From positions 128,001 through 192,000 of the forward strand of contig CAWEJX010000008.1 of the NCBI GenBank assembly GCA_963809485.1: a stretch of DNA of 64,000 nt, given 5' to 3'. The notes beneath the pieces are model-generated. The model saw nothing but the letters and a program-made list of their open reading frames with translations. It was not told where the DNA came from and did no database searches. Numbering within the stretch: position 1 is the stretch's first letter; each line of letters opens with the position of its first letter. Origin of the DNA: an uncultured Acidobacteriota bacterium. GTDB taxonomy: Bacteria > Acidobacteriota > UBA6911. The position numbers and the translations under genes were made by a program. This document shows positions 32,974 to 48,796 of this stretch, in pieces.

Positions 32974-33115
32974 GAATTACATTCGCTGACGATCAAGTCA
33001 CCTGTCATTTTTAACAGTCCAACACCCGGCGCCGAGAAGATACAATTTTCAGGCGGTGCACCGGAAGGCATACATTATTTATATAGATGGGATCTGCGCA
33101 TCAGGAGGTGGCAGC

Positions 33116-35023
33116 ATGAAAGTCAAACAAATAGTGTCGTCAGGGCTACGGATGATCCTTGCGGCTTTATTGCTGTTTCCGCCGGGTTCCCTTCAAGCGC
33201 AGCAGGACAAAATCGCTGCCTTCAAACAAGAGTTGGCCCAGAACAAGAAGCGGCTGGCCCAGTACGAATGGACTGAAACCACGATTATCAGTATGAAGGG
33301 TGAAGAAAAGTCCCGGGTTCAGAAACATTGCTACTATGGTCCGGACGGGAAAATTCAGAAACAGCAGATCAGCGCACCCGCTCAGCAAAAATCTCCGGGC
33401 GGACTCAAAGGAAAGGCTGCCGCCAAAAAGAAGGGGGAGATCACTGAGTATATGCAACAGGCAGCCGCCCTGATCCATAGCTATGTGCCGCCGGAGGCCG
33501 ACCGCGTTCAGGCTGCCCGGGATTCGGGAAAGCTCTCTTTCGTTCCGATGGGCCAGGGTTCGGTCCGGCTGGATTTTCATGATTTTATGAAGCCGGGCGA
33601 CAGCATGGCCTTCACTATCGATAAGCAAAAGTATGCAATCCAGAACATCAATGTGAAATCCTACCTGGATGACAAGGAGGACGCGGTCACTTTGGATGTC
33701 GGTTTCGCGGCCCTCAATGATGGCACCAGCTATGTGTCGAAGGCTGTGGTCAACGCGCCAGCAAAAAAAATCCAGGTTGTGGTCCAGAACTCCAATTACC
33801 AGAGGATGGCTGCCGTTGAAGTGGGGCAGCCACCACCCCAGCAACCGCAAGTCCAAGCAGGCGCGCCGCAGCAGGGGCAGACACTGACGCCGCAACAGAT
33901 CGACACTTTGACGGCACCCATTGCCCTTTACCCGGATGCACTCCTGGCTCAGATCTTTACCGCATCGGTCAACTTTATCGAGCTGCAATCGTTCGCGGAT
34001 TGGATGGGGAAGAACTCCAATCTGACCGGCAGCTCGCTTCAGGACGCTGCGCAGAAAGCGGGGTACGATGCTTGTCTCGTGGCGCTCGCCCCATTCCCCC
34101 AGGTTGTCCAGATGATGATTCAGAAGCCGGACTGGACCCAGCAGATCGGCAAGGCATTTGCGGCAAACCGCAGCGCCGTCTTCGATTCCATTCAGCGGCT
34201 GCGGGCACAAGCGCAAGCCAAGGGCAATTTGCAAACCACGGAACAGCAGGAAGTCAAGACTCAAACGACTTCCGGCGGGCAGGAGGTAATCGTTATTCAA
34301 CCTGCGAATCCCCAGGTGATTTATGTGCCCCAATACAATCCGCAGGTCGTATATGTCCAGTCTGCTCCCCCTCCTTCTGCCGCTTCATCGGCGGCCGGCG
34401 CAGCCCTGGTAGGATTCACCGCCGGCATCATCATTGGGGCTGCAGCCAGCAATAACTATTATCACGGACCCTATGGCTGGCATGGCGCTTCCATGTACAA
34501 CGAATTTTGGGAAGATCGTTATGATGCTGCGGAAGATCTCCAGGAGAACCGGCAGGAGTATATGAATGAGCGCCAGGAGAATTACCAGCAGAATTCAGCC
34601 GATCGACAGTCCTCGGCGCAAGCCAATCAGGCTAACCGGCAGGCCGGCGCCCAAAGTGCCCAGCCCAGTGCGCAAGCCGGCCAGGCGCAGCGCCAGTCCT
34701 CGGCTCAAGCCACCCAGACCAGCCAGGCTAATCGTCAGACCAGCGCGCAAACGGGTCAGACGCAGCGACAGACCGGCGCCGGCGCAACACAGAGCAGCCG
34801 ACAGGCACAGGCAGTTCAATCTCAGAGCGCCGCAAGCGCTTCGAGCCGGACCAGCGGACAATCTGCATCGCAGCGAAGCGGCATGAGCTCGGGTGGCTTT
34901 TCAGGCTATCAAAGCGGCTCAGCCACGGCATCGCAAAGCAAACGAGGAAACAGCAGCCTTTCCTCCAGCCGGAGCAGCCGAAGCAGCGGAGGCGGCCGCA
35001 GTCGGGGCAGTCGCAATAGATGA
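33116..35023 (+). CDS. Secreted DUF3300 protein with extra N-terminal domain and Q/S/R-rich tail
   Basis: AGGAGG RBS, signal peptide, L.APIALYPDALLAQI and I.IQPANPQVIYVPQYNP motifs. Confidence 0.85.
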   Translation: MKVKQIVSSGLRMILAALLLFPPGSLQAQQDKIAAFKQELAQNKKRLAQYEWTETTIISMKGEEKSRVQKHCYYGPDGKIQKQQISAPAQQKSPGGLKGKAAAKKKGEITEYMQQAAALIHSYVPPEADRVQAARDSGKLSFVPMGQGSVRLDFHDFMKPGDSMAFTIDKQKYAIQNINVKSYLDDKEDAVTLDVGFAALNDGTSYVSKAVVNAPAKKIQVVVQNSNYQRMAAVEVGQPPPQQPQVQAGAPQQGQTLTPQQIDTLTAPIALYPDALLAQIFTASVNFIELQSFADWMGKNSNLTGSSLQDAAQKAGYDACLVALAPFPQVVQMMIQKPDWTQQIGKAFAANRSAVFDSIQRLRAQAQAKGNLQTTEQQEVKTQTTSGGQEVIVIQPANPQVIYVPQYNPQVVYVQSAPPPSAASSAAGAALVGFTAGIIIGAAASNNYYHGPYGWHGASMYNEFWEDRYDAAEDLQENRQEYMNERQENYQQNSADRQSSAQANQANRQAGAQSAQPSAQAGQAQRQSSAQATQTSQANRQTSAQTGQTQRQTGAGATQSSRQAQAVQSQSAASASSRTSGQSASQRSGMSSGGFSGYQSGSATASQSKRGNSSLSSSRSSRSSGGGRSRGSRNR

Positions 35024-35046
35024 GATCAGATAGGTCCGTAAATAAT

Positions 35047-35440
35047 TCTATTGGTAAACCCCCGGCTGTGCCGGGGGACTCATATAGTTTGACAGCTCCG
35101 TATTTTGAAACGCTGAGATACGCTGACAAAAGCGCTGACAAACGCCGATTTGTTCGGCGAGGGTCGGCGAGCAAAAGCCGATGAGGCGCTTCCGATGGAG
35201 TTTTCTGCGGCGGCACTGTGGCAAGCGCCGTGCGGCAAGGAGATGGGGATTATGAGAAACCGGGCGTTTGCCACAGTGCCGCCGCAGAAAACTGTCCAGC
35301 GCAGAGCGCTGGCCCCTGCGGGGATCGGAAGCGCCTCATCGGCTTTTGCCCGCGTATGTCAGCGTTCAAGACCGGCGTATCTTGTCCAACCGCTTTGAGC
35401 GGTTCGAATCTTGCCTCCGGCTTTGCCGGAGGTATCTGAC
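35047..35440 (+). mobile_element. IS200/IS605-end element, long form with 182-bp internal inverted-repeat insert
   Basis: Follows TAAT; both terminal hairpins present; ends TGAC; near-identical to 62995-63392. Confidence 0.88.
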
Positions 35441-35469
35441 TCAGACTTTTGACAGATCGGAGAACCGAT

Positions 35470-36402
35470 ATGCGCATTCTATTCTGTCGTACCCTTGCAT
35501 TGTTCCTGGGACTGACCCTTTTGGGGTGGAAGGCAAATGCACAGGTTCCGGAACAGACAGCTTTCGCCACTCCGGACGAGGCTGCAACCGCGCTTCTCGA
35601 AGCGCTGAAATCAGACGACCTCGACAAACTACGGTCGATCTTTGGTCCTGATGCGCAACAGGCCCTTTCGTCGGGTGACCTGCTATTGGACCGTCATGAC
35701 CGTACCGTCATCGCCCTCGCAATACAGCAGTCCTGGCAGTGGGTGAAGCGCGATTCCAAGAACAGGACGCTCGTGATTGGAGAGGAACGCTGGCCGTTTC
35801 CGGTTCCGCTTGCGAAGAAAGCCAATGGCTGGCAATTTGACACCCAAGCCGGAAAAGACGAGGTTTTGGCACGGCGCATTGGGCGAAATGAGATCTTTAT
35901 TATCGACCTGTGCAGGGCTTATGCCAATATGCAGCAGAGGTACTCAAGTCAACCGCACGACGGTAAGCCGGCTGGATTGTATGCGCAAAAGATTCGGAGC
36001 ACTCCCGGCCGTCAGGACGGCCTGTATTGGAGTGTGAAGCCGGGAGAGCGGCCTAGTCCCTTGGGCGATCTCGCGGCCGAGGCGGCCGCGGAAGGATACA
36101 ATCCTGAGAATAATCAGCCCACCCCGTTTTGGGGCTATTACTTCCGAATTCTCACTGCCCAGGGGAAGTCGGCGCCTGGAGGCCCCAAGAGCTATATCGT
36201 CGACGGCAACATGTCGGAAGGATTCGCTCTTATCGCCTATCCTGCCAGGTACGGGTACAGCGGAGTCATGACCTTCATCGTCAACCAAAGCGGTGTTGTA
36301 TACGAGAAGGATCTGGGTCCGGAGACGCCCAAAATCGCGGGCAGCCTGAATGAGTACGATCCTGACAGGTCATGGAAAGTTGTGAGAGAGATCGTCCCGT
36401 AG
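35470..36402 (+). CDS. Secreted DUF2950 family protein
   Basis: F.TPDEAA.AL, WPFPVPL, RRIGRNE, DGLYW, GYYFRIL and YG.SGVMTF. Confidence 0.88.
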   Translation: MRILFCRTLALFLGLTLLGWKANAQVPEQTAFATPDEAATALLEALKSDDLDKLRSIFGPDAQQALSSGDLLLDRHDRTVIALAIQQSWQWVKRDSKNRTLVIGEERWPFPVPLAKKANGWQFDTQAGKDEVLARRIGRNEIFIIDLCRAYANMQQRYSSQPHDGKPAGLYAQKIRSTPGRQDGLYWSVKPGERPSPLGDLAAEAAAEGYNPENNQPTPFWGYYFRILTAQGKSAPGGPKSYIVDGNMSEGFALIAYPARYGYSGVMTFIVNQSGVVYEKDLGPETPKIAGSLNEYDPDRSWKVVREIVP

Positions 36403-36430
36403 ACGTCTCAATTCATAAGGAGGCAGCAGC

Positions 36431-37056
36431 ATGACAAGCCATGATCCGCACATACCGGTCAGCGCGCAGGAAGGCTCTCAGACGCCTGATCGACGGAAAT
36501 GAGCGGTTCCTGAACGGACAGCGCCCGCTTCCCCACCCATCAGAAAGAAGTCCTGGCCTCCCTGGTACGCGAACAGCGCCCCTACGCAACCATTCTCGGT
36601 TGCAGTGACTCACGCGTGCCACCGGAGCTCATCTTCGACGCCAATTTTGGGGAATTGTTCGTCATCCGTGTCGCCGGCAACGTGCTATCGCCCGAAGTAG
36701 CCGGCTCGATGCAATACGCGGGGATGCATCTGAAGACGCCCTTGTTCGTTGTGCTCGGCCACGAAAACTGCGGCGCTGTCCACGCGGCGCTCGACATGAA
36801 GTTCCGCAATGCCGTACAACCGTCACGCATAGAACTTCTCATTCGAAATATCCTGCCCTCGCTGGAAAATATCGACGAGCATGCCGATCCGGCGGCTCAG
36901 ATGGCGTCTGCGGTAGAAGCCAATGTCCGCTGGAGCATGCGGCAGATAGCCGAATCGCCTGAGGGACGCGCTCGAGCGGCGGAAGGAACTTATATGCTCG
37001 TGGGGGCCATCTTCGAAATTGCGACCGGCCGGGTGAGGTTTCTGGAGCCGGTCTGA
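36431..37056 (+). CDS. Beta-class carbonic anhydrase, frameshifts in the 5' part
   Basis: AL.RL.DGNERF, GCSDSRVPPE, FVIRVAGN and LGHENCGAV; AAGGAGG RBS. Confidence 0.88.
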
Positions 37057-37066
37057 ATCAGTCTGA

Positions 37067-37266
37067 CTCAATCGGCAAGCCGCCGGCTCTGCCGGGTGAC
37101 TGATGGAGTATGGCAGTCGCGGATTTTGAAACGCTGACATACGCTGACAAAAACGCTGATACACGCCGATGCATTTGGCGAGGATCCGCGTTATGGCTAT
37201 GGAACTCGTCCAGCCGCTTTGAGCGGTCACAACTGAAAGCCGCCGGCTTTGCCGGAGGTAAATGCC
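37067..37266 (+). mobile_element. Diverged copy of the IS200/IS605-end element
   Basis: ccggctctgccgg left hairpin, CGCTGA repeats, gccgctttgagcggt, and ccggctttgccggagg right hairpin. Confidence 0.8.
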
Positions 37267-37497
37267 TGTTTTAATAATCGCGCACGGATGCCCACGGAAA
37301 TTAATCCACGAAAATCCCTCAAATCCGTGTCCTCTTCTTTGGGTTGGGCCGAGTGGCTGTCAGCCCAGTCCCTCCCCGGACTGGTAAAATTGACAGTTTA
37401 TCGCCGGCAGGCAACTGAATAACCTTCCCTCGAATCTCCAAAATATGCCCCATACCAGACAGGAGGCAGAGTCCGTCGCGATTCGGAGAAAGACACA

Positions 37498-38832
37498 ATG
37501 CTCATTTGGATGGAATTGGCAGTATTGCTGGCTGCAATCGTTCTGGGAGCCCGAATGGGCGGGATCGGCCTCGGGCCGATGGGCGGCCTTGGGCTACTGG
37601 TGTTCGTTTTTGTATTCCACCTGCCCCCGGGCAGCCCGCCCGGCAACGTCCTGGGGATGATCCTGGCTGTGATTACGGCCCTGTCGCTCATGCAGGCAGC
37701 GGGAGGATTGGACTACGTCATTCAGCTCGCCGAGAAAGTCCTGCGCCGGAACCCTCGCCGCATCACGATCCTTGCCCCGCTGGTCACCTATCTTCTGATC
37801 CTGGCCTCCGGCACGCAGCATGTGATTTATGCCCTGCTTCCAGTGATCGCGGAGGTGGCGCGCAAAGCCGGGATCCGGCCTGAGCGTCCGCTATCGATGA
37901 GCGTGATCGCTTCGCAGCATGGGCTCGTGGCCTCGCCTGTCTCCGCGGCAACGGTCGCACTCATCGCGGGATTGACAGCGTCGGGTGTGGGATTGCCTCA
38001 GGTCATGATGATCACAATCCCGGCCACCCTGCTCGGCGTAATCGCCGGCATTTTCTCGGTTGCCTTCCGAGGGCGCGAACTGGCGGAGGATCCCGAATAT
38101 AAGCTGCGGCTCGCTCAGGGGAAAGTGACGCCTCCCGCAGAACGGACCGAACTTGCCGGCGCCGAACGAAAAAAAGCCATGGGATCCTGCATGGTTTTCC
38201 TGGCTGCAATTCTCGCAGTGGTCTTAATCGGACTTTTTCCGGCGCTTCGGCCGGTTTATGAAAAAGTCGCAGAAGGTGTGACCGAAACGGGGCAGGTGGA
38301 AATGGGCCGTGCCGTGATGATTGTCATGTTGGCGGCAGCTGCCCTGTTGCTGCTGGTCTTCCGGGCTGATCCCGAGAAGGCCGTGAAGGGGAGCATCATG
38401 AAGGGCGGCCTCACCGCCATCATCTGCATCCTGGGAGTTTCATGGATGGGATCATCCTTTTTCGAGGGAAACCAGCCCGCGATCGTGGGCGCCATCTCGT
38501 CCGTGATTCAGACACAGCCCTGGATTTTCGCCGCAGGCCTTTTTGTTCTTTCGATTCTGCTTTTCAGTCAGGCCGCAACGGTCACAATCCTTGTCCCTGT
38601 GGCTCTGGCCCTGGGCTTGCCCGTCCCGCTTATCGTCGGCGCCTATCCGGCCGTAAATGGCAACTTCTTCCTTCCCACTTACGGTACTGTGCTGGCCGCC
38701 GTTTCCTTTGATCAAACCGGTACAACACGCATCGGGAGGTATTTGCTCAATCACAGTTTCATGCTGCCGGGGCTGGTGACGACAGTGACTGCCGCAATAG
38801 CGGCTTCCATCCTGGCCCAGTGGCTTCTTTAG
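37498..38832 (+). CDS. Anaerobic C4-dicarboxylate transporter (DcuA/DcuB family)
   Basis: LGARMGGIGLG, AAGGLDY, RPERPLS, ASPVSAA and GTTRIGRYLLNHSFMLPG. Confidence 0.93.
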   Translation: MLIWMELAVLLAAIVLGARMGGIGLGPMGGLGLLVFVFVFHLPPGSPPGNVLGMILAVITALSLMQAAGGLDYVIQLAEKVLRRNPRRITILAPLVTYLLILASGTQHVIYALLPVIAEVARKAGIRPERPLSMSVIASQHGLVASPVSAATVALIAGLTASGVGLPQVMMITIPATLLGVIAGIFSVAFRGRELAEDPEYKLRLAQGKVTPPAERTELAGAERKKAMGSCMVFLAAILAVVLIGLFPALRPVYEKVAEGVTETGQVEMGRAVMIVMLAAAALLLLVFRADPEKAVKGSIMKGGLTAIICILGVSWMGSSFFEGNQPAIVGAISSVIQTQPWIFAAGLFVLSILLFSQAATVTILVPVALALGLPVPLIVGAYPAVNGNFFLPTYGTVLAAVSFDQTGTTRIGRYLLNHSFMLPGLVTTVTAAIAASILAQWLL

Positions 38833-38848
38833 CAACCTGGAGGTATTT

Positions 38849-40333
38849 ATGAGACGCCTTATTCCTGTATTTCTTTCCTTACTTATTGTCCTGACTGCAA
38901 TCCAGGGCGCTTCTGCTCAGCAGAAGTTCCGTTTGGAAAAGGATCTGCTGGGTGAAAAACAGATCCCTGCGGACGCCTACTACGGTGTTCAGACCGCCCG
39001 GGCCCTCGAAAATTTTCCTATCTCTGGATTTTTGATCAATCACTATCCCGGTTTCGTTGAGGCGAATGCAATGGTCAAGCTGGCTGCAGCGAGAGCCAAC
39101 ACGGATGTCGGCGCCATGAAACCGGAGACATTGGCCGCTATCGAAAAGGCCTGCCAGGCTGTGATCGACGGCAAGTATCACGACCAGTTTTTGGTTGACT
39201 GGTACCAGGGCGGCGCCGGCACGTCCACCAACATGAACGTTAACGAAGTGCTTGCCAATATCGCGCTTGAACTGACCGGACACAAAAAGGGCGAGTACCA
39301 GTTCGTCGATCCACATGACCATCTGAACATGTCACAATCAACCAACGATACCTACCCGACCGCGATCAAGGTTGCCTTTCTCCTGCGAAATGAATACCTG
39401 ATCAAAGAAATGGAGAGTCTCGCAACTTCCTTTAGGTTCAAGGGGAATGCTTTTCTGAAAATGGTCAAGATGGGGCGAACTGAGATGCAGGATGCCGTGC
39501 CCATGACCGTTGGTCAGGAATTCCATGCCTTTGCGGCTGCGCTGGAAGTCGAAATCCAGTTGCTGCGGGACGCCGAGAAGTATTTATACCCCGTCAACAT
39601 GGGCGCGACCGCAATCGGCACCGGAATTAACGTGCCCAAAGGCTACCCGGAAAAATGCGCGGCGCATCTGGCCAAGTTGACCGGCAAGCCTATTGTTCCG
39701 GCCTCGGACATGCTGGCAGCAACCTGGGATCAGCAGGGATTTGTCGCCTATTCCGCGGCGCTCAAAAGCCTGGCCATAAAGCTGTCGAAGATCGCGAGCG
39801 ACTTGATCCTGCTCGCCTCCGGACCGCGCGCGGGACTGTTCGAGATCAACCTGCCGCCGCTTCAACCCGGCTCCTCCATAATGCCCGGCAAAGTTAATCC
39901 GGTCATGCCGGAAGTGATGAATATTGTCGCTTTTCGCGTTATGGGCAACGATCAAAGCGTAGGCCTTGCGGCGCACCATGGGCAGCTGCAGCTTAATGCC
40001 TATGAACCGCTCGCCGGTCTGGCCGTGATTGAGTCTCAGGCCCTGCTATTCCGCACCTCCAATCTCTTTCGCACAAAGTGTATCGACGGCATCACAGTGA
40101 ACGAGAAGACCCTGCAACGATACATGGAAACCACCGTCGGAATCGTCACGGCGCTCAATCCGGTTCTCGGCTATGAAAAGGCAACCGAGCTGGCCGCTGA
40201 AGCTTACAAGAGCGGCAAAGGAATTATTGAAATCATCCGGGAAAAGAAAGTCCTTACCGAACAGCAGATTCAGGAGTTGCTGGACCCGGCCAAGCTGACC
40301 GGGCTCGATATATCCAAGTATGCGGATAAATAA
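38849..40333 (+). CDS. aspA: Aspartate ammonia-lyase with N-terminal Sec signal peptide
   Basis: R.EKDLLG..PADAYYGVQT.RA, QGGAGTS.NMN, GSSIMPGKVNP; preceded by MRRLIPVFLSLLIVLTAIQGASA. Confidence 0.92.
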   Translation: MRRLIPVFLSLLIVLTAIQGASAQQKFRLEKDLLGEKQIPADAYYGVQTARALENFPISGFLINHYPGFVEANAMVKLAAARANTDVGAMKPETLAAIEKACQAVIDGKYHDQFLVDWYQGGAGTSTNMNVNEVLANIALELTGHKKGEYQFVDPHDHLNMSQSTNDTYPTAIKVAFLLRNEYLIKEMESLATSFRFKGNAFLKMVKMGRTEMQDAVPMTVGQEFHAFAAALEVEIQLLRDAEKYLYPVNMGATAIGTGINVPKGYPEKCAAHLAKLTGKPIVPASDMLAATWDQQGFVAYSAALKSLAIKLSKIASDLILLASGPRAGLFEINLPPLQPGSSIMPGKVNPVMPEVMNIVAFRVMGNDQSVGLAAHHGQLQLNAYEPLAGLAVIESQALLFRTSNLFRTKCIDGITVNEKTLQRYMETTVGIVTALNPVLGYEKATELAAEAYKSGKGIIEIIREKKVLTEQQIQELLDPAKLTGLDISKYADK

Positions 40334-40359
40334 ACTCAATGATCCAGGAGGTAACTGTC

Positions 40360-41427
40360 ATGAAGTGCAAGATCCAGGTTTTGTGGTTGGGGATTCTGGT
40401 CGCCGCCTTTTTGGCCGTCTCTATGGCCATGGCCGCCGATCTCCCGAACATCGTGGTTCTCGCAACAGGTGGCACCATTGCCGGTGCGGCAGCCAGCGAT
40501 GTTCAGGCCGGCTACACATCCGGCCAGGTAGGAGTCGATCAGCTCCTCGCCGCCGTGCCCCAGGCTAAGAAGCTGGCAGTTTTGCGCGGCGAACAGATCT
40601 CGAACATCGGCTCGCAGGATATGAACGATGAGGTCTGGCTGAAGCTGGCCCGCCGCATCAACGAGCTGACGGCGATGTCGAACGTTGATGGCGTGGTCAT
40701 CACCCATGGCACGGACACTATCGAGGAAACGGGATATTTCCTGAACCTGGTTGTCAAATCAAAGAAACCTGTCGTGCTGACAGCCGCCATGCGCCCGTCG
40801 ACGGCGCTTTCCGCCGACGGCCCGCTCAACTTTTTCAATGCAGTGGCGGTGGCGGCCAACAAGGACGCCGCTGGCCGCGGAGTGCTGGTTGTCGTTAACG
40901 ACTGGATCCACGGGGCATCCTCACTAACCAAAGCCAGCACTACGGCGGTGCAGACCTTTCTTTCGCCATTGCGCGGTTTGATCGGCACAGTCGCCTACGG
41001 TGAAGCCGAATTCTATCGCGGGCCCGTTGGCCGAAACACAACCGAATCGGAGTTTTTTTTGGACGGTGTCACACTCCTGCCCCGCGTGGACATAATCATG
41101 GCTCACGAGAACATGGACGGGAAACTCATTGATGCGGCAGTAGCGGCAGGTGCAAAGGGCATTGTGATCGCCGGAGTCGGAAACGGCAATATGACAAAGG
41201 ACGCCCTCGACGCTCTTGCAGCACAAGCCAAGAAGGGCATTATTTGTGTCCGTTCTTCGCGTGTAGCCACGGGCCTGGTGGGCCGCAATGTTGAAGTGGA
41301 CGACGACAAATTGAGTCTGGTCGCCTCACTTGGATTGAATCCCCAGAAATCGCGTGTGCTCCTCCGGCTGGCCCTGTTGAAGTCGCGCACCCTGGCGGAT
41401 ATCCAGCGAATTTTCGAGGAGTACTGA
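40360..41427 (+). CDS. ansB: Type II (periplasmic) L-asparaginase
   Basis: Signal peptide, ATGGTIAG, HGTDT, NIGSQDM and LNPQK.R.LL. Confidence 0.93.
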   Translation: MKCKIQVLWLGILVAAFLAVSMAMAADLPNIVVLATGGTIAGAAASDVQAGYTSGQVGVDQLLAAVPQAKKLAVLRGEQISNIGSQDMNDEVWLKLARRINELTAMSNVDGVVITHGTDTIEETGYFLNLVVKSKKPVVLTAAMRPSTALSADGPLNFFNAVAVAANKDAAGRGVLVVVNDWIHGASSLTKASTTAVQTFLSPLRGLIGTVAYGEAEFYRGPVGRNTTESEFFLDGVTLLPRVDIIMAHENMDGKLIDAAVAAGAKGIVIAGVGNGNMTKDALDALAAQAKKGIICVRSSRVATGLVGRNVEVDDDKLSLVASLGLNPQKSRVLLRLALLKSRTLADIQRIFEEY

Positions 41428-41553
41428 GAGGCTAACAAATAAAGGACACGGGTTTTCCCGGATCTTCACTGATGTAAATCCGTAAAACCAGCGTAGATTC
41501 ATGTCCTTTTCTTCAGCACGAAATCAGTCCAATTCATATGGAGGTCATGCCTC

Positions 41554-42777
41554 ATGAACAGAACCGTTGAGAACATACTGAAAAGCCTGTTCTTGTTTTT
41601 ATTTATTGCAGCCGGCAGCCAGCTGGTTTGCGCGCAGACAGGCGAGCAAGCCAAGCCTTTCTTGGACATTTATGGCTTTGCCATGATGGATGCCGGATAC
41701 GATTTTAAGCAGGTGCACCCCGACTGGTTTGACGTCGTGCGGCCAACCAAGCTTCCCTCCTTTGAAAATGAGTTTGGCGCCGACGGCAATACCTACTTCA
41801 GCGCCCGCCAGACCCGGTTCGGCGTCAAATCCGAAGTGCCAACAAGCATGGGCACCCTCAAGACCATCTTCGAATTTGAACTGTTCGGAACAGGCGTGGA
41901 CGCTGGTCAGACCACATTCCGTTTGCGCCACGCCTATGGCGAACTGGGGCAGGTCGGAGCGGGTCAATACTGGAGCCCATTCATGGATATCGATGTATTC
42001 CCCAACACGGTGGAGTATTGGGGTCCGACTGGAATGGTGTTCTTCCGCAATGTGCAGTTCCGCTGGATGCCTCTTAAGGGCGACTCCCGCATCACGATTG
42101 CCTTGGAGCGGCCGGGCGCCAGTGCAGACCAGGGAGTGTACAGCAATAGGATCGAATTGGAGGATGTCCATGCACATTTCCCGATGCCGGACATCTCGGG
42201 AGAAGCGCGCCTTGGCCGCAAGTGGGGCTATGTGGAGGCCGCCGGGATCCTGCGCCGCATCGAATGGGAGGATTTAGGCACCGACCAGTACGATCTCACC
42301 GGAGAAGCCTGGGGATGGGGCGTCAACCTCAGTTCCAACCTGAAAGTCGGAAAGAAGGACGTGATCAAACTTCAGTTCGTTTACGGCGAAGGGATCCAGA
42401 ACTACATGAACGACGCGCCGCAGGATGTCGGGATAGCGTCCAATCCAGGCAACACCACTGCTCCCGTTAAAGGTGAAGCGCTGCCCCTGATCGGCATTGT
42501 CGCATTTTACGACCACTATTGGAGCGACAAGTTCAGCAGCAGCTTCGGGTATTCCCGCCTGGACATTGATAACAGTGCCGGGCAGGCTGACGATGCCTTT
42601 AAGACCGGTCAATACGCTGTTGCCAACCTTCTCTACTACCCGGTGAAGGATGCCATGGTAGGTGGCGAGTTCCAATGGGGTCATCGTGAAAATTTCCGGG
42701 ATGGATGGAGCGTACCGGACTACAGGATTCAGTTTTCATTCAAATACAACTTTTCGTTCCGAGTTTTGGGGAACTAA
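41554..42777 (+). CDS. DcaP-family outer membrane porin
   Basis: Signal peptide, ARQTRFG, RLRHAYG, GQ.WS.FMD and C-terminal QFSFKYNF beta strand. Confidence 0.8.
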   Translation: MNRTVENILKSLFLFLFIAAGSQLVCAQTGEQAKPFLDIYGFAMMDAGYDFKQVHPDWFDVVRPTKLPSFENEFGADGNTYFSARQTRFGVKSEVPTSMGTLKTIFEFELFGTGVDAGQTTFRLRHAYGELGQVGAGQYWSPFMDIDVFPNTVEYWGPTGMVFFRNVQFRWMPLKGDSRITIALERPGASADQGVYSNRIELEDVHAHFPMPDISGEARLGRKWGYVEAAGILRRIEWEDLGTDQYDLTGEAWGWGVNLSSNLKVGKKDVIKLQFVYGEGIQNYMNDAPQDVGIASNPGNTTAPVKGEALPLIGIVAFYDHYWSDKFSSSFGYSRLDIDNSAGQADDAFKTGQYAVANLLYYPVKDAMVGGEFQWGHRENFRDGWSVPDYRIQFSFKYNFSFRVLGN

Positions 42778-42810
42778 CGCAATCAACCGGATTTGAAAGG
42801 AGAAGGCATA

Positions 42811-44424
42811 ATGGAGAAGTCATTAAAGGATTTTCAGAGCATACCGGGCGCCTGTGGCAGCGGCGAATGCGGGAGCTGTGGATCGGAGACAAAAAATGGC
42901 GGTCTTAGCCGCCGCGACTTTGGATGTGCTGCTCTTACTGCCGTCGCAGCATCGGTCCTCACCGGCTGTTCCACCGCACAGAAACAGACCGTGCAGAAAG
43001 CTGAGCCTGCAGCGCCGGCCCTGCCTGCCATGTCTCAGGACCTGGAAGTGGTCAAGAAATCCAAAGGGCCGATTATGACGACCCTCGAGGAGTTCTATAA
43101 GATGGGCCCGGGTCCCTCGAGCTCCCACACCATGGGAGTTATGCGGTGTACCTATGATTTCTTCCAGAGGGTCAGCAAGCTTCCCGAGGATCAGCTGAAG
43201 AGAGCCACGGCGCTCCAGGTTCATCTGTTTGGAAGTCTCAGCGCGACCGGGAAAGGTCACGGCACGGAACGGGCTGCGCTGGCGGGCCTGCTCGGCAAGG
43301 CTCCTGCCGATTGTCCTCCTCAATTCCTGGACGGCATGGCGGCCAAACCGGAGGAAGTGCATAAGGTCGCCATAGGCCCCGCCACTTTCAGCTTGACCTT
43401 GAAAAACATCATTTACGATGCTACCAAGGGAGACTTTCCGCATCCCAACACGTTGATCGCCAAACTCCTTGCCGGCAATGAAACCATTCTCGAGCAGGAA
43501 TATTATTCGGTCGGCGGAGGCTTCATCGAATGGAAAGGCTACAAGCCGCCGGATAAGGGCCAACCCAAATATCCATTCTCCTGGGCGAAGGATCTAAAGA
43601 AATTCCTCCTCGATGACAAGATTCCGCTGGCGAGGGTACTGCTTGAAAATGAAATGGCCATCTCAGGCAGGAGTGAGAAGCAGATCTGGGAATTCCTCGA
43701 CCAGGTGGCGAGTGTCATGGCTCGAGGGGTGGAGACGGGATTGTCTGTGGAAGGCGTTCTTCCGGGCCCCATCCAATTGCACAGCAAGGCGGCTGCCATT
43801 TATCGCAGTCTGAAGGACACAAACAAAGGACCGGGCGGCCGGGCTATAAGCACGGTGGCGGCTTATGCTTTCGCCATGGGTGAGGAAAACGCCCGCGGAC
43901 ATGTTATCGTGACTGCGCCCACAGGAGGGTCCGCAGGTATTATGCCGGCTGTGCTCCGGTCGCTGCGCGACATTAACACACCTGCCCAAAAAATCCGGGA
44001 AGGATTCCTGGCAGCGGCGGCTATCGGCTACATCTGCAAACACAATGCCACGCTGGCGGGCGCCGAAGGAGGTTGCCAAGCGGAGGTCGGAGTTGGTTCT
44101 TCGATGGCTGCCGCGATGATTGCCCAGGCTTTAGGTGCTCCCCCCAAAGTTGTCTCCAATGCCGCCGAATCAGCTCTCGAACACCACCTTGGCATGACCT
44201 GCGATCCGGTGGCCGGTTTTGTTCAGATCCCTTGTATCGAGCGGTGCGCCTATGGGGCAGTGAAGGCCTGGACGGGCTATTGCATTGCCAGTGAAGAGAT
44301 TCCGGAACAGCGCCGGGTAGATCTCGATACGACAATCGCGGCGATGGCCATGACGGCCAAGGACATGAACGCCAAATATAAGGAGACGTCTGAAGCAGGT
44401 TTGGCCGCTCTTGTGCTCTGTTAG
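42811..44424 (+). CDS. sdaA: Fe-S L-serine ammonia-lyase (single chain) with Tat/lipoprotein leader
   Basis: GPGPSSSHTMG, GSLSATGKGHGT, VTAPT.G.AG, GGCQAEVG and CDPVAG.VQIPCIER; leader SRRDF...VLTG-C. Confidence 0.92.
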   Translation: MEKSLKDFQSIPGACGSGECGSCGSETKNGGLSRRDFGCAALTAVAASVLTGCSTAQKQTVQKAEPAAPALPAMSQDLEVVKKSKGPIMTTLEEFYKMGPGPSSSHTMGVMRCTYDFFQRVSKLPEDQLKRATALQVHLFGSLSATGKGHGTERAALAGLLGKAPADCPPQFLDGMAAKPEEVHKVAIGPATFSLTLKNIIYDATKGDFPHPNTLIAKLLAGNETILEQEYYSVGGGFIEWKGYKPPDKGQPKYPFSWAKDLKKFLLDDKIPLARVLLENEMAISGRSEKQIWEFLDQVASVMARGVETGLSVEGVLPGPIQLHSKAAAIYRSLKDTNKGPGGRAISTVAAYAFAMGEENARGHVIVTAPTGGSAGIMPAVLRSLRDINTPAQKIREGFLAAAAIGYICKHNATLAGAEGGCQAEVGVGSSMAAAMIAQALGAPPKVVSNAAESALEHHLGMTCDPVAGFVQIPCIERCAYGAVKAWTGYCIASEEIPEQRRVDLDTTIAAMAMTAKDMNAKYKETSEAGLAALVLC

Positions 44425-44463
44425 GATCGCGAATGGATAAAAGCCACGGATTTCAGGCTTTGT

Positions 44464-44686
44464 GTCAAGTGCCTCCGGCTTTGCCGGAGGCTTGAAAGAT
44501 TTGAACCACTCAAAGCGCTTGGAGGAGTTACGCCGGTCTTGAACGCTGACTTACGCGGGCAAAAGCCGATCCTCGACGAACAAATCGGCGTTTGTCAGCG
44601 CTTTTGTCAGCGTATCTCAGCGTTTCAAAATACGGAGCTGTCAAACTCTATGAGTCCCCCGGCAGCGCCGGGGGTTTACCAATGGA
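44464..44686 (-). mobile_element. IS200/IS605-end element, complete ends, carrying a scar of the internal insert
   Basis: On the minus strand: TAAT|tccattggtaaa-hairpin ... caag-hairpin-cact-TGAC; contains gggcaaaagccgat at 44557-44570. Confidence 0.88.
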
Positions 44687-44730
44687 ATTAATCAATGAAA
44701 TCCATGGCGTTTTTTGTCCGGGGTGCCCTT

Positions 44731-46401
44731 ATGCGGATGCCGGATTGGATGATCCAGTATCGGAAAGAGTGGCTGCGCCCTGATGTGGTTGCCGGGGTGA
44801 CGGCTGCGGCCGTAGTTATTCCGAAGGCAATGGCCTACGCCACGATTGCCGGATTGCCCGTGCAGGTCGGGCTTTACACCATATTCCTCCCCATGCTGAT
44901 CTACGCCGTGATGGGGACCTCCCGGCCGCTCAGCGTCAGCACCACAACCACGCTGGCCATTCTGACCGGTGCGGAGTTCGCCGAGGTCGCCGTGAAAGGC
45001 GATCCCGCATCCTTGTTGCCCGCCTCGGCTATGCTAACGCTGCTGGTGGGAGGCATTCTTGTCCTGGCAGGAATTCTGCGCCTGGGCTTTGTCGCCAACT
45101 TCATCTCCGAACCCGTATTGATCGGGTTCAAGGCAGGAATCGGGATCGTCATCGTCGTGGATCAGATTCCGAAGCTCCTGGGCGTTCACTTTGACAAAGG
45201 ACCATTTTTCTTCCGAAACCTGGTTGCGCTGGCCAAAAGCATCCCTGAAACGTCGATGATCACTTTGGCGGTCTCGGTCGTCATGATCGCGGTACTTGTG
45301 GCGATGGAGCACTATACTCCACGAGCACCCGCGCCGCTGATCGCGGTGGCCATCGGCATCATCGGCGTAAGCGTGCTGGGATTGCAGGGCTTTGGGGTGC
45401 AAACGGTGGGTCACGTTCCAAAGGGGCTGCCTTCCTTCGCTCAGCCGGACTTCGCCCTTGCAATGCAGCTCTGGCCGGGAGCTTTGGGAATTGCGCTGAT
45501 GAGTTTTACCGAAACGATTGCGGCCGGGCGCGCCTTCGCCGTGAGCGGCGAGCCGTCGCCTCGTCCCAATCAGGAGCTGCTGGCGACAGGGCTCGCCAAT
45601 GCGGGCGGAGCTTTCCTGGGAGCAATGCCGGCGGGCGGAGGCACTACTCAGACCGCGGTGAACCGCCTCGCGGGCGCGCGCACTCAAATGGCGGAGTTGA
45701 CAACGGCCGGTGCAGCGCTTATTACGATGCTTTTCCTTGCCCCGCTCATTGCCCTGATGCCGCAGGCCACGCTGGCGGCGATAGTCATTGTATACTCGAT
45801 CGGATTGATCAAGCCGGCGGAGTTTCGCGCCGTTCGAAAGGTCAGACGGATGGAATTCCGCTGGGCGGTGGCTGCCCTTCTGGGGGTTGTCCTCCTGGGA
45901 ACGCTGAAGGGGATTCTGGTTGCGATCATCGTATCGCTGGCGGGCCTTGCCTACCAGGTTGCGGACCCGCCCGTGCAAGTATTAGGGCGCAAGCGGGGGA
46001 CCAACGTCTTCAGGTCCCTGTCGAAGGATCATCCGGATGATGAGACATTTCCTGGTCTGCTGCTGATGCGGCTGGAGGGAAGGATTTTCTTTGCCAATGC
46101 CGCGCGTATCGGACAAAAAATTAGGGGCTTCATCGATGCCGAGAAGCCGAGGGTTATTGCAGTGGACCTCAGCGGCGTCATAGATCTCGAATACACCGCA
46201 CTCAAGAATTTGATCGAGGCCGAGCGCAAGGAACGCGAGCATGGTGTTCTGATGTGGCTGGTGGGGCTCAACCAGGAGGTGTTGGATATGGTGATGCGTT
46301 CGGAACTGGGAAAAACCCTTGGGCGCGAAAGAATGTTTTTCAATCTGGAATTGGCAGTCGCAAAGTACCTCTCATTACCGGCAACCGACCGTCAGCTCTG
46401 A
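44731..46401 (+). CDS. SulP/SLC26 anion permease with STAS domain
   Basis: D.VAGVT...V.IP.AMAYA.IAGLP..GLY, NQEL.A.GLAN and IFFANA; the ORF can extend upstream to 44695. Confidence 0.92.
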   Translation: MRMPDWMIQYRKEWLRPDVVAGVTAAAVVIPKAMAYATIAGLPVQVGLYTIFLPMLIYAVMGTSRPLSVSTTTTLAILTGAEFAEVAVKGDPASLLPASAMLTLLVGGILVLAGILRLGFVANFISEPVLIGFKAGIGIVIVVDQIPKLLGVHFDKGPFFFRNLVALAKSIPETSMITLAVSVVMIAVLVAMEHYTPRAPAPLIAVAIGIIGVSVLGLQGFGVQTVGHVPKGLPSFAQPDFALAMQLWPGALGIALMSFTETIAAGRAFAVSGEPSPRPNQELLATGLANAGGAFLGAMPAGGGTTQTAVNRLAGARTQMAELTTAGAALITMLFLAPLIALMPQATLAAIVIVYSIGLIKPAEFRAVRKVRRMEFRWAVAALLGVVLLGTLKGILVAIIVSLAGLAYQVADPPVQVLGRKRGTNVFRSLSKDHPDDETFPGLLLMRLEGRIFFANAARIGQKIRGFIDAEKPRVIAVDLSGVIDLEYTALKNLIEAERKEREHGVLMWLVGLNQEVLDMVMRSELGKTLGRERMFFNLELAVAKYLSLPATDRQL

Positions 46402-46404
46402 TTT

Positions 46405-46604
46405 TAACTTTTAGACCCACGGCCCTGCCGGGGAACTCAAAGAGTTTGACAGCCCCGTATTTTGAAACGCTGACATACGCTGACAAAAGCGCTGACCTAC
46501 GCCGAACAAATCGGCGTAGGTCAGCGCTTAAAACTATGGAACTCATCCAACCGCCTTGGGCGGTTTACAACGGCAAGCCTCCGGCAAAGCCGGAGGTAAT
46601 TGAT
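46405..46604 (+). mobile_element. IS200/IS605-end element variant with perfect 19-bp internal hairpin
   Basis: aagcgctgacctacgccga-acaaa-tcggcgtaggtcagcgctt; aaccgcc-ttg-ggcggtt; cctccggcaaagccggagg. Confidence 0.85.
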
Positions 46605-46662
46605 TGTTAGATTCAGGAAAGGACCGACCGGGATCCGGCTTTCATAATGAAAGGGAAATGGT

Positions 46663-47604
46663 ATGGAACCAAAACACGTAAGATACGAGCAGCTGATTAA
46701 GCGCTGCAAGAAGCTGCCCGCAGCATCGACAGCTGTGGCACATCCGTGTGACGAGAGTTCGCTGCAGGGAGCTGTTGATGCGGCCAGGGCCGGTCTGATT
46801 GCGCCCATTCTGGTCGGCCCGGCAGCCCGCATCCGGGAAATCGCATCGAAAGCCGGCATCAATATAGCCGGCTACCCGATCGTGGAGGCCGCATTCAGCC
46901 AGGAATCGGCCGAGATAGCCGTAAAGCAGGTACGCGACGGCAAGGCGGAGGCTTTGATGAAAGGCAGCCTGCACACCGACGAGCTGATGGGTGCAGTAGT
47001 GAAACGTGATACGGGACTGCGCACGGCCCGGCGCATCAGTCACTGCTTCGTCATGGACGTGCCCGGCTATCCCTATGCCCTCATCATCACGGACGCTGCT
47101 GTGAATATCGCGCCTTCGCTCAAGGAGAAAGTCGATATCGTGCAGAATGCGATCGATCTCGCGCACGACCTCGGCGCCGCCGAGGTTCGCGTGGCCATAC
47201 TCTCCGCGATGGAAACGGTCAACCCGGACGTGCCCTCGACGCTGGAAGCGGCCGCCCTTTGCAAGATGGCGGACCGTAAACAAATCACCGGCGCCCTGAT
47301 CGACGGCCCGCTCGCGCTCGACAACGCGATCAGCCCCGAAGCCGCCAAGATTAAGAAGATCGACTCGCCGGTCGCCGGGCGAGCCAACGTGCTGATAGTG
47401 CCAGACCTCGAGGCGGGAAATATGCTTGCCAAGAGCCTGAGCTTCCTCGCCGGGGCGGACGCTGCGGGCATAGTGCTTGGCGCGCGCGTGCCGATCATAT
47501 TGACCAGCCGCGCGGATTCCCTGATCGCGCGGCTCGCTTCGTGCGCAGTGGCTTCTCTCGTGGCCGCCGCGCGCCGCGCGAGCGCCGGTAAGGCTGTGAG
47601 GTGA
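46663..47604 (+). CDS. Phosphate acetyl/butyryltransferase (PTA_PTB)
   Basis: LMKGSLHT, TDAAVNIAP, DGPLALDNA, PDLEAGNML.K and LTSRAD. Confidence 0.9.
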   Translation: MEPKHVRYEQLIKRCKKLPAASTAVAHPCDESSLQGAVDAARAGLIAPILVGPAARIREIASKAGINIAGYPIVEAAFSQESAEIAVKQVRDGKAEALMKGSLHTDELMGAVVKRDTGLRTARRISHCFVMDVPGYPYALIITDAAVNIAPSLKEKVDIVQNAIDLAHDLGAAEVRVAILSAMETVNPDVPSTLEAAALCKMADRKQITGALIDGPLALDNAISPEAAKIKKIDSPVAGRANVLIVPDLEAGNMLAKSLSFLAGADAAGIVLGARVPIILTSRADSLIARLASCAVASLVAAARRASAGKAVR

Positions 47605-47608
47605 TGCC

Positions 47609-48796
47609 ATGACCGACGCCATTCTGGTACTCAACGCCGGCTCGTCCAGCATCAAGTTCTCCCTTTTCCTTGCGCAGACGGATCAGCTTCAGCTCAGGCT
47701 GCGCGGACAGATCGAGGGGCTTTACACCGCGCCACGCTTCATCGCCAAGGACGTGGCGGGGGCCACCCTTAGGGAATACAGGTGGAATGAAGGCACGCGC
47801 CTTGGCCATGACGGCGCGATCGACTATCTGATCGCCTTTCTGATGGAATATCGCCAGGAACTCCGACTGATCGCCGTCGGCCACCGGGTCGTGCACGGCG
47901 GGATCAAGTTTTCGGAGCCCACTCTGGTCAACGCGGAGGTGTTGGACAGCCTCGAGAAGCTGATTCCGCTTGCCCCGCTGCACCAGCCGCACAACCTGGC
48001 ACCCATCCGGGTGGTTGCCCAGCGAAGGCCGGAATTGCCGCAGGTAGCCTGTTTTGACACGGCCTTCCACCGGGCGCAACCGGAACTTGCGCAGGTATTT
48101 GCCTTGCCGTATGCCGTCACGGAACGCGGCGTGCGGCGATACGGATTTCACGGCCTGTCGTACGAATATATCGCCGGTGTATTGGCGCGCTACGATGCCA
48201 GGGCTGCCGCTGGACGCGTTGTCGTCGCGCATCTCGGCAATGGGGCCAGCATGTGCGCCATCCATGCCGGCCGGAGCGTGGCGACCACGATGGGATTTAC
48301 GGCTGTGGATGGTCTGCCAATGGGCACGCGCTGCGGCTCCATCGATCCGGGCGTCATGCTGTACCTGATGGACGAGCTGAAGATGGATGCGCGCGCCATC
48401 GAGAAGCTCATTTACCAGCAATCGGGGCTGCTCGGTGTTTCAGGGATTTCAAGCGACATGCGCGCGCTATTGGAAAGCAGCGAACCAAGAGCCCGTCTCG
48501 CAGTGGATCTATTCACCTATCGCATCGGGCGCGAGCTTGGCTCCCTTTCGGCGGCCCTCGGCGGGCTTGACGCCCTGGTTTTCACAGGCGGAATCGGTGA
48601 GCACGCCGTGGCGATCCGGGAGCGCGTGTGCCGCGAAGCATCCTGGCTGGGGATTGAACTCGATCTCGCCGCCAACAGCGCAGGAGGCCCGCGCATCAGC
48701 AAGGAAGGCTGTCCTGCATCGGCGTGGACCATCCCGACAGATGAAGAGCTGATGATCGCCCGGCATACGCGGCGCCTGATTGGCAAGATCACCTAG
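47609..48796 (+). CDS. ackA: Acetate/propionate kinase
   Basis: LNAGSSSIKF, GHRVVHGG, FDTAFH, RRYGFHG, HLGNGAS and TDEELMIA. Confidence 0.95.
   Translation: MTDAILVLNAGSSSIKFSLFLAQTDQLQLRLRGQIEGLYTAPRFIAKDVAGATLREYRWNEGTRLGHDGAIDYLIAFLMEYRQELRLIAVGHRVVHGGIKFSEPTLVNAEVLDSLEKLIPLAPLHQPHNLAPIRVVAQRRPELPQVACFDTAFHRAQPELAQVFALPYAVTERGVRRYGFHGLSYEYIAGVLARYDARAAAGRVVVAHLGNGASMCAIHAGRSVATTMGFTAVDGLPMGTRCGSIDPGVMLYLMDELKMDARAIEKLIYQQSGLLGVSGISSDMRALLESSEPRARLAVDLFTYRIGRELGSLSAALGGLDALVFTGGIGEHAVAIRERVCREASWLGIELDLAANSAGGPRISKEGCPASAWTIPTDEELMIARHTRRLIGKIT

Follow-up and report, generated by a model that had tools for sequence, protein, structure and literature searches.

Our analysis of a 64,000-nt stretch from the genome of an uncultured Acidobacteriota bacterium (contig CAWEJX010000008.1, positions 128,001 to 192,000; the whole stretch is hereafter called the window, and its source genome comprises 6.0 Mb in 21 contigs) revealed five + strand genes within 37498-44424, namely dcu, aspA, ansB, a dcaP-like porin gene and sdaA, in which two normally cytoplasmic enzymes, the aspartate ammonia-lyase AspA and the [4Fe-4S] L-serine dehydratase SdaA, carry conserved predicted export signals. 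Textbooks place both aspartase and Fe-S serine dehydratase in the cytoplasm, and no description of an exported form of either was found in the full-text literature searched. We hold it likely that the five genes form an operon for periplasmic amino-acid deamination and carbon harvest, by which asparagine, aspartate and serine would probably lose their nitrogen outside the cytoplasm. The genes and the two unusual leaders, which belong to the general secretory (Sec) and the twin-arginine translocation (Tat) types by our rules, are as follows.

37498..38832, + strand: dcu, DcuA/DcuB-family C4-dicarboxylate transporter of 444 aa (Pfam DcuA_DcuB, E 3.5e-133; TIGR00770, 460.8 bits, cut-off 331)
38849..40333, + strand: aspA, aspartate ammonia-lyase of 494 aa with a predicted N-terminal Sec-type leader
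38849..38917, + strand: predicted AspA leader, residues 1-23, from a rule-based call and homologue comparison
40360..41427, + strand: ansB, type II L-asparaginase of 355 aa from the corrected start, with leader residues 1-25
41554..42777, + strand: DcaP-like outer-membrane porin of 407 aa (PF19577), with leader residues 1-27
42811..44424, + strand: sdaA, single-chain [4Fe-4S] L-serine dehydratase of 537 aa from the corrected start, with a predicted Tat/lipoprotein leader
42811..42969, + strand: predicted SdaA leader, with a Cys-rich n-region, SRRDFG, an h-region and the lipobox LTGC (Cys53)

Judged by comparison with other genomes, this five-gene feature is real and well supported, and its description in the initial annotation as five co-oriented, tightly spaced genes of the named families holds, since all five lie on the + strand and match their profiles, with two starts corrected. 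The intergenic gaps amount to 16 nt for dcu-aspA, 26 nt for aspA-ansB, 126 nt for ansB-dcaP and 33 nt for dcaP-sdaA, and none of the four contains a + strand terminator-like site. Each of the five genes follows a Shine-Dalgarno site, and these sites support the starts of aspA, ansB, dcaP (41554) and sdaA. For example in aspA, a GGAGG with a 5-nt spacer precedes the ATG at 38849; the ansB start was moved to the ATG at 40360, with AGGAGG upstream, as the start of the longest open reading frame (ORF) at 40339 is unlikely; and the sdaA start was moved from the equally unlikely longest-ORF start at 42793 to the ATG at 42811, which is preceded by AAGGAGAAGG (AAGGAG) and agrees with the N-termini of the homologues. 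These sites precede the ATGs of the leaders rather than internal codons, which argues against true starts lying downstream of the leaders, a doubt that the initial annotation itself had raised. As to regulation, the promoter and terminator scan gave counts no different from shuffles, the Rfam scan of 36000-47000 gave no family match, and no FNR/CRP-type box was found upstream of dcu when searched with TTGAT-N4-ATCAA, for which the window holds 5 one-mismatch matches against 2.0 expected. Of the sequencing runs listed for this DNA, none is an RNA run, and the DNA runs have shares of at most 0.13.

AspA consists of the Pfam domains Lyase_1 and FumaraseC_C. Among the NCBIfam models it scores 659.8 bits with PRK12273 (aspartate ammonia-lyase), above the cut-off of 510, while the score with the aspA equivalog TIGR00839 is 618, under the cut-off of 681.2, and that with fumC_II is 445.5. 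Against the Protein Data Bank (PDB), aspartases score 450-510 bits and fumarases about 350 bits, the best match being 6wng (509.8 bits, query 26-483), and the catalytic SS-loop GSSIMPGKVNP (GSSxMPxKxNP) aligns to both 6wng and 1jsw. The leader, MRRLIPVFLSLLIVLTAIQGASA, which is followed by QQ, comprises two Arg, a 15-residue hydrophobic core and A-S-A, thus satisfying the criteria for Sec export and type I signal peptidase applied in this analysis (basic n-region, h-region, small residues at -3 and -1). It lies outside the solved fold, as the alignment to E. coli AspA (1jsw) begins at residue 26, corresponding to chain residue 4. To our knowledge all characterised aspartases are cytoplasmic and leaderless; AspA departs from this norm in its predicted location, not in its catalysis.

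The comparison with homologues points in the same direction. Among the 120 best homologues of AspA, which are 82-100% identical, 116 are extended at the N-terminus by 15 residues or more, and in 114 of these 116 the extension combines a basic n-region with a hydrophobic core; the other four sequences, being short or starting with a residue other than Met, are probably truncated gene calls. In the 116 extended homologues the ungapped identity is only 24% for the leaders versus 88% for the mature parts, the pattern expected of signal peptides. Moreover, 79 of 80 metagenome loci (78-93% identity) encode a leader, 76 of them passing the rule and three having a leader from the next upstream Met, and the last locus runs into the end of its contig. 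When 300 other Acidobacteriota genomes of at least 85% completeness were drawn evenly, all six AspA at 75-83% identity have a leader and none of the nine at 58-61% identity does (one of the nine being from the unpublished genome G185), and a further four at 50-52% occur as fusions with a cNMP-binding-like domain (L190-L193). A similar protein is found in the window's genome, where the paralogue L002 (G000:C20:1073265-1074656, - strand) has 650 residues, with a cNMP-binding-like N-terminus and an aspartase-like lyase 48% identical to AspA; leaderless lyase paralogues occur in this genome as well. In the AspA tree (83 rows) the leader-bearing enzymes constitute one clade with a Shimodaira-Hasegawa-like approximate likelihood ratio (SH-aLRT) support of 100, and their sister is a group of leaderless Terriglobia AspA. 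Four rows inside the leader clade carry the script label "leaderless" and are GTG-start, over-long or truncated calls. A set of 150 representative AspA rows (50% identity clusters) mixes leader-bearing and leaderless forms and was used only as a source of leaderless rows for the tree and for a count of cysteines.

At the end of the AspA leader, an A, G or S is followed by Gln in 110 of the 116 leaders (window 38915-38923), a junction that resembles the "Q-rule" of Bacteroidetes. Genome-wide, Gln at the predicted +1 position occurs in 7.5% of 414 signal-like N-termini versus 3.1% of controls under a crude cleavage rule, and no Glu_cyclase_2 gene was found in the genome. We record this junction as an observation only.

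As for SdaA, the SDH_beta (PF03315) and SDH_alpha (PF03313) domains are present and the TIGR00720 score is 396.8 bits (cut-off 345.1). The protein shares the single-chain beta-plus-alpha architecture and the conserved cysteines of the Legionella pneumophila structure 4rqo (E 1.9e-81, query 90-533) and of E. coli SdaA, SdaB and TdcG, whereas unlike these it carries 89 additional residues ahead of the fold, whose first residue is 90. C422, C464, C475 and C537 are invariant in an alignment of 24 sequences (A1) and align to cysteines of 4rqo; they belong to GCQ, TCDP and PCIER, which we take to supply the cluster ligands, and to the C-terminus, whose Cys would presumably be an inhibitory tail. From its conserved N-terminus the extension runs through a Cys-rich stretch, SRRDFG, a moderately hydrophobic stretch free of charged residues, LTGC and a Pro/Ala-rich linker that resembles a tether. 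Residues 1-52 make up the leader, with C15, C20 and C23 in the n-region, SRRDFG at 33-38, an h-region of mean hydropathy 2.17 and the lipobox LTGC ending at Cys53, and R34, R35 and C53 are nearly invariant in A1. The layout is that of a predicted Tat-exported lipoprotein, i.e. a class II Tat substrate, which according to a 2026 review (PMC13673990) combines an RR motif at the n/h boundary with a lipobox recognised by type II signal peptidase; neither serine dehydratase nor aspartase occurs in that review. Such a route suits SdaA, since its [4Fe-4S] cluster must be received before export. The initial annotation had predicted leaders of export type on AspA, AnsB and SdaA, and by our rules all three are found; for SdaA this wording was right about export and too general, the signal being specifically of the Tat/lipoprotein type.

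The 120 best homologues of SdaA (72-91% identical, nearly all of 541-550 residues) show how well this leader is kept: 116 have RR and an h-region, and 108 a lipobox-like Cys. The other four comprise two full-length sequences off the pattern and two that were called short (458 and 449 aa). To extend this across species, the SdaA loci were scanned with one genome per species, which gave 80 loci; 79 of them have at least 50% identity, and after removal of four unreadable N-termini and two at contig edges, 73 remain, of which 68, from several phyla, have RR and an h-region. The five exceptions are two frame-shifted leader remnants (L070, L079), a deleted leader (L050), a leaderless protein (L054) and an equivocal case (L087). 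Since the leaders of both enzymes are kept as leaders in hundreds of homologues, they are more than chance extensions of ORFs. For SdaA two leader designs are seen on orthologous catalytic domains: a plain Tat leader (DRRAFLMRSALIGATA...AQQ; DRRAFLMRSA...AQQ) in Bryobacterales and Proteobacteria, and a leader with the Cys motif and the lipobox in the other carriers. In the tree of 67 rows, from which about 17 broken or partial loci were omitted, the exported-type enzymes split from four leaderless outgroups (SH-aLRT 98), and those with the Cys motif make one clade (SH-aLRT 95) nested among the plain-Tat forms. An AlphaFold2 model of full-length SdaA built with A1 is too poor to use, with a mean predicted local distance difference test (pLDDT) of 53.4, a predicted template modelling score (pTM) of 0.58 and residues 1-75 below 50.

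The Cys motif itself, CGxC-x4-CGxC, is conserved in the n-region of SdaA (window 42853-42882, residues 15-24; A1 columns ~33-46). Before RR, at least four Cys are present in 107 of the 116 homologues and three in six, as in the window, whose SdaA has with its closest relatives only three Cys in the motif. Being located upstream of RR, the motif would remain cytoplasmic and be cleaved off. SdaA shares RR and lipobox with other class II Tat substrates, while a scan of this genome found no Cys-rich n-region in any other RR leader.

The remaining two proteins with predicted leaders are ordinary in their signals. AnsB has the N and C domains of asparaginase, the TGGTIAG threonine motif and a leader of residues 1-25 ending in AMA; it scores 429.9 bits with the type II model TIGR00520 (cut-off 314.3) and 429.7 with the E. 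coli AnsB equivalog NF008304, under the cut-off of 506. The porin, whose leader of residues 1-27 ends in VCA, matches the DcaP family PF19577 with 69.5 bits (cut-off 27) over profile positions 69-410 only, the N-terminal part, which in Acinetobacter DcaP holds a coiled coil, being absent, and gave no match to the NCBIfam models.

The genes around the operon, which bear on its function, are as follows.

36432..37056, + strand: beta-carbonic anhydrase (Pro_CA, E 9.7e-31 for 36616-37056), frame broken near 36530
44695..46401, + strand: SulP/STAS anion transporter (Pfam Sulfate_transp and STAS; TIGR00815 378.8 versus a cut-off of 380.45; DauA 171 versus 614)
46663-47604, + strand: pta (Pfam)
47609-48796, + strand: ackA (Pfam)
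48932-51187, + strand: pflB (Pfam)
51200-52057, + strand: pflA (Pfam)
52238-53830, + strand: transporter with Asp-Al_Ex and two TrkA_C domains (Pfam), a putative exporter

Of these, pta-ackA-pflBA are predicted to be cytoplasmic genes for the fermentation of pyruvate to acetate, and this surrounding is conserved. Among the 80 SdaA loci, PflB is found in the flank of 43 and Pta or AckA in 42; a DcaP-like porin lies directly 5' of sdaA in 24 and anywhere in 36, a count that includes Bryobacterales loci whose porin is only 28-34% identical to the window's. Directly 3' of sdaA, a major facilitator superfamily (MFS) protein of about 430 residues occurs in 48 of the 80, at the place where the window has SulP; the window's genome lacks this MFS, its best match being 25% identical and located elsewhere. 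The suggestion of the initial annotation that carbon skeletons are harvested with ammonia left outside fits this context, as an anion transporter follows exported-type sdaA and is in turn followed by pta-ackA-pflBA. As a side observation, homologues of the Asp-Al_Ex transporter (70-73% identity) adjoin pflA in L020, L022, L023, L027 and L067, and this transporter may export a fermentation product.

For the 80 AspA loci, the same-strand partners are AnsB (42), Dcu (30), MFS (21), DcaP (18), SdaA (16) and Pfl/Pta/Ack (11), and 11 loci show no partner, ten of these being contigs shorter than 3.3 kb. Among the genome loci, DcaP accompanies the leader-bearing AspA in 8/8 and AnsB in 7/8, whereas the five leaderless AspA of the same set (59-60% identity) stand only beside a divergent dcu, and none has AnsB. 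These partner counts answer a check proposed in the initial annotation: the presence of the leader does track the gene neighbourhood.

Families, gene order, starts and the conservation of leaders and neighbourhood are read directly from the sequences, and from them we infer export, the substrates of porin and transporters, and the physiological benefit. On this basis the operon could work in the following way. Asparagine, aspartate and serine would be admitted across the outer membrane by the DcaP-like porin; AnsB, exported by Sec, would convert asparagine to aspartate, and the Sec-exported aspartase would convert aspartate to fumarate. SdaA, loaded with its cluster in the cytoplasm, would be exported folded by Tat, be tethered as a lipoprotein and convert serine to pyruvate. 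The NH4+ released would remain outside the cytoplasm, while fumarate would be taken up by Dcu and pyruvate by the anion transporter adjacent to sdaA, SulP in the window and, in most relatives, an MFS of the ACS type. In the cytoplasm, PflBA, Pta and AckA would then turn pyruvate into acetate, formate and ATP, and fumarate may serve as a putative electron acceptor. The cell may benefit by using a few anion carriers in place of amino-acid permeases and by keeping surplus nitrogen out while it ferments under energy limitation.

A broader reading, to which we give about an even chance, joins these points into an undescribed extracytoplasmic ammonification in Acidobacteriota, Bacteroidota, Binatia and Proteobacteria of soils and sediments, with a Sec aspartase, a Tat [4Fe-4S] serine dehydratase (usually a lipoprotein) and a dedicated porin, whereby only fumarate and pyruvate would be imported for fermentation or fumarate respiration; in it the leader motif CxxC-x4-CxxC might bind metal and so act as a checkpoint by which export is coupled to the loading of the cluster.

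Several points weigh against export and deamination in the periplasm as proposed here. The leader calls for AspA and SdaA are predictions from the rules of this analysis. The median number of Cys is 3 in mature exported AspA versus 5.5 in 60 leaderless class II lyases, with overlapping ranges, so that a depletion of cysteines gives the reading weak support. A pyruvate importer must be assumed because the pyruvate-using enzymes are cytoplasmic, and its candidates are of uncertain specificity: the SdaA-linked MFS is an ACS-like MFS_1 protein whose nearest NCBIfam model, a D-galactonate transporter group, gives 78.7 bits, far under the cut-off, and the NCBIfam scores of the window's SulP are under their cut-offs. 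Anoxic conditions are needed for a labile 4Fe-4S cluster to be kept outside the cytoplasm. Furthermore, TatC is encoded in the genome by a single tatC (L093, G000:C7:391769-392402), in which an apparent indel of 1 nt leaves two frames that overlap, and if this break is real, Tat export would fail. We read the frame breaks of tatC and of the carbonic anhydrase gene as assembly errors, short of proof, since 88 ORFs of the genome with RR-type leaders (crude rule) depend on Tat and since a further gene, for the aspartase-like paralogue L004/L005, shows a split like that of tatC. For the carbonic anhydrase, the N-terminal part continues in another frame and the break near 36530 lies beside a C-run, so that one wrongly assembled base is much the likeliest cause and a pseudogene is less likely.

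Finally, the single copy of sdaA in the genome and the Met at its ancestral start leave room for a cytoplasmic isoform. This leads to the best of the rival explanations, dual localisation, according to which SdaA is exported and also translated from the internal Met89, so that a leaderless cytoplasmic form feeds PflB directly, with the exported form in a secondary role. In 112 of 119 homologues and 56 of 74 loci a Met is retained at this position, which corresponds in the alignment to the start of leaderless SdaA; an AAAGGG stands 7 nt upstream of the Met89 codon in the window, sdaA has no second copy in the genome, and the two short database entries of 458 and 449 aa are called from about this position. 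On the other hand, Leu, Ile or Thr occupies the position in 18 of the 74 loci, and at the Gly86 codon purines that would strengthen a Shine-Dalgarno site are not enriched in the third base (GGA and GGG in 21 of 68, versus 39% of the Gly codons gene-wide). The K-G-P-I-M segment may be kept merely as the start of the fold, and were export unimportant, leader and lipobox would not stay conserved across phyla. We consider dual localisation unlikely, with some room left for it.

A somewhat less probable alternative is that the periplasmic release of ammonia protects the cell against acid, with carbonic anhydrase for buffering, as in Helicobacter. In its favour, three ammonia-releasing enzymes carry export leaders together, a beta-carbonic anhydrase gene lies upstream, carbonic anhydrase genes follow sdaA in five of the 80 loci, and many carriers are Acidobacteriota according to their record titles. 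The chemistry speaks against it, for in the conversions of asparagine to aspartate, of aspartate to fumarate and of serine to pyruvate, each releasing NH4+, the amino group is already protonated, so that no net proton is taken up at about pH 5-9 and only a fraction near pH 4; the role in buffering periplasmic pH that the initial annotation had offered is thus weakly supported. Moreover, what is conserved around the enzymes is not genes of acid resistance but anion transporters and genes of fermentation, and the carriers include Bacteroidota and Proteobacteria whose labels name sediments and lakes. The same annotation had taken carbonic anhydrase and pta-ackA-pflBA as fitting either role; the fermentation genes do recur, but the adjacency of carbonic anhydrase is confined to the one subclade that holds all five loci, and in the window its gene is frame-broken.

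The explanation that the leaders are an annotation artefact, i.e. untranslated open upstream sequence before two cytoplasmic enzymes, can point to an in-frame TTG at AspA residue 28, the ATG at SdaA residue 89 and a few database entries called short, and we find it scarcely credible given the placement of the Shine-Dalgarno sites, the AspA frames that stay open in 116 homologues with the properties of signal peptides at such low leader identity, the near invariance of RR, h-region and lipobox in SdaA, and the existence of sister clades without the extension for both enzymes.

With respect to its distribution, the exported-enzyme trait is accessory and patchy, and its modules combine in various orders. 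In the draw of 300 genomes, exported-type SdaA is present in nine (one of them G185), leader-bearing AspA in six, and both in only two (G083, G282). Among the relatives of the window's genome, exported-type SdaA was found in none of the 24 congeners searched, of which only one gave any SdaA match, and AspA of more than 61% identity occurs in two of 29 congeners; across 40 relatives any SdaA match occurs in only three, the nearest being 36-42% identical and leaderless. By the record titles, the 80 SdaA loci belong to Acidobacteriota (Terriglobia, Blastocatellia, Bryobacterales), Bacteroidota, Binatia, Alpha- and Gammaproteobacteria and others; the carriers in Bacteroidota and Proteobacteria are labelled as from sediments and lakes, and those in Bacteroidota include a cultured one, the isolate Algoriphagus sp. 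A40 (L051). The arrangement in the window, a tight five-gene operon upstream of the fermentation genes, is among the fullest, and similar ones are seen in L052, L055, L070, L077 and L078. It was also observed that L049, L052 and L070 are titled Limnohabitans or Acidimicrobiia, that L049 has an SdaA grouping with that of Algoriphagus, and that L052 and L070 carry the whole operon at 84-91% identity to the window; the mismatch of taxon in these three reflects either mis-binned contigs or a very recent transfer.

Compared with known systems, the operon appears as a variation on known enzymes and on the known theme of periplasmic deamidase and transport. A first likeness is to E. coli aspA-dcuA with ansB, which has the same three families, the same adjacency of aspA and dcu, and a periplasmic AnsB, as predicted here. 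E. coli AspA is cytosolic and has been reported to interact with DcuA and DcuB (10.1101/2021.03.01.433382), and DcuA is reported to exchange L-aspartate for C4-dicarboxylates (PMC10634366). The AspA described here differs by its cleavable-type Sec leader, owing to which Dcu would carry fumarate rather than aspartate. A second likeness is to Helicobacter pylori and Campylobacter jejuni, where AnsB with DcuA, and gamma-glutamyltransferase (gamma-GT) with GltS, share the removal of amide nitrogen in the periplasm and the Dcu-type uptake of the product. In these two species only the deamidases are periplasmic, aspartase and serine dehydratase being cytoplasmic, whereas in the present operon the lyase steps of AspA and SdaA have predicted export leaders too. 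The third is the E. coli tdcABCDEFG operon for anaerobic degradation of serine and threonine, which uses a cytoplasmic dehydratase and an amino-acid permease. Like sdaA-transporter-pta-ackA-pflBA, it clusters a dehydratase with a pyruvate formate-lyase-type enzyme and an ATP step by an acyl kinase; unlike it, the present locus has a dehydratase with Tat signal and lipobox, a porin and a transporter of organic-anion type.

If the reading of periplasmic deamination is true, part of the amino-acid mineralisation in soils and sediments would release ammonium outside the cell, and models of aspartate/fumarate exchange by Dcu would not apply to these organisms. A new class of cofactor enzyme would join the Tat substrates, and a natural periplasmic aspartase would be relevant to whole-cell aspartate production. 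The cultured Algoriphagus carrier would offer a tractable test case. The feature is clearly of interest for work on amino-acid catabolism, on Tat export and on the turnover of nitrogen in soil.

Two minor observations concern the surroundings. A repeat of about 130 nt that contains internal hairpins lies between genes at 35043-35176, 37068-37197, 44562-44690 and 46412-46533, bracketing the operon and sulP. It was considered as the boundary of a mobile cassette and rejected as such, as 344 blastn hits (274 of at least 90 nt) spread over the 21 contigs; it is a genome-wide element resembling repetitive extragenic palindromic (REP) sequences or miniature inverted-repeat transposable elements (MITE). 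Just upstream lie genes for a DUF3300 protein with a long Gln/Ser/Ala-rich tail (33056-35023) and for a DUF2950 protein (35449-36402), both with signal-like N-termini.

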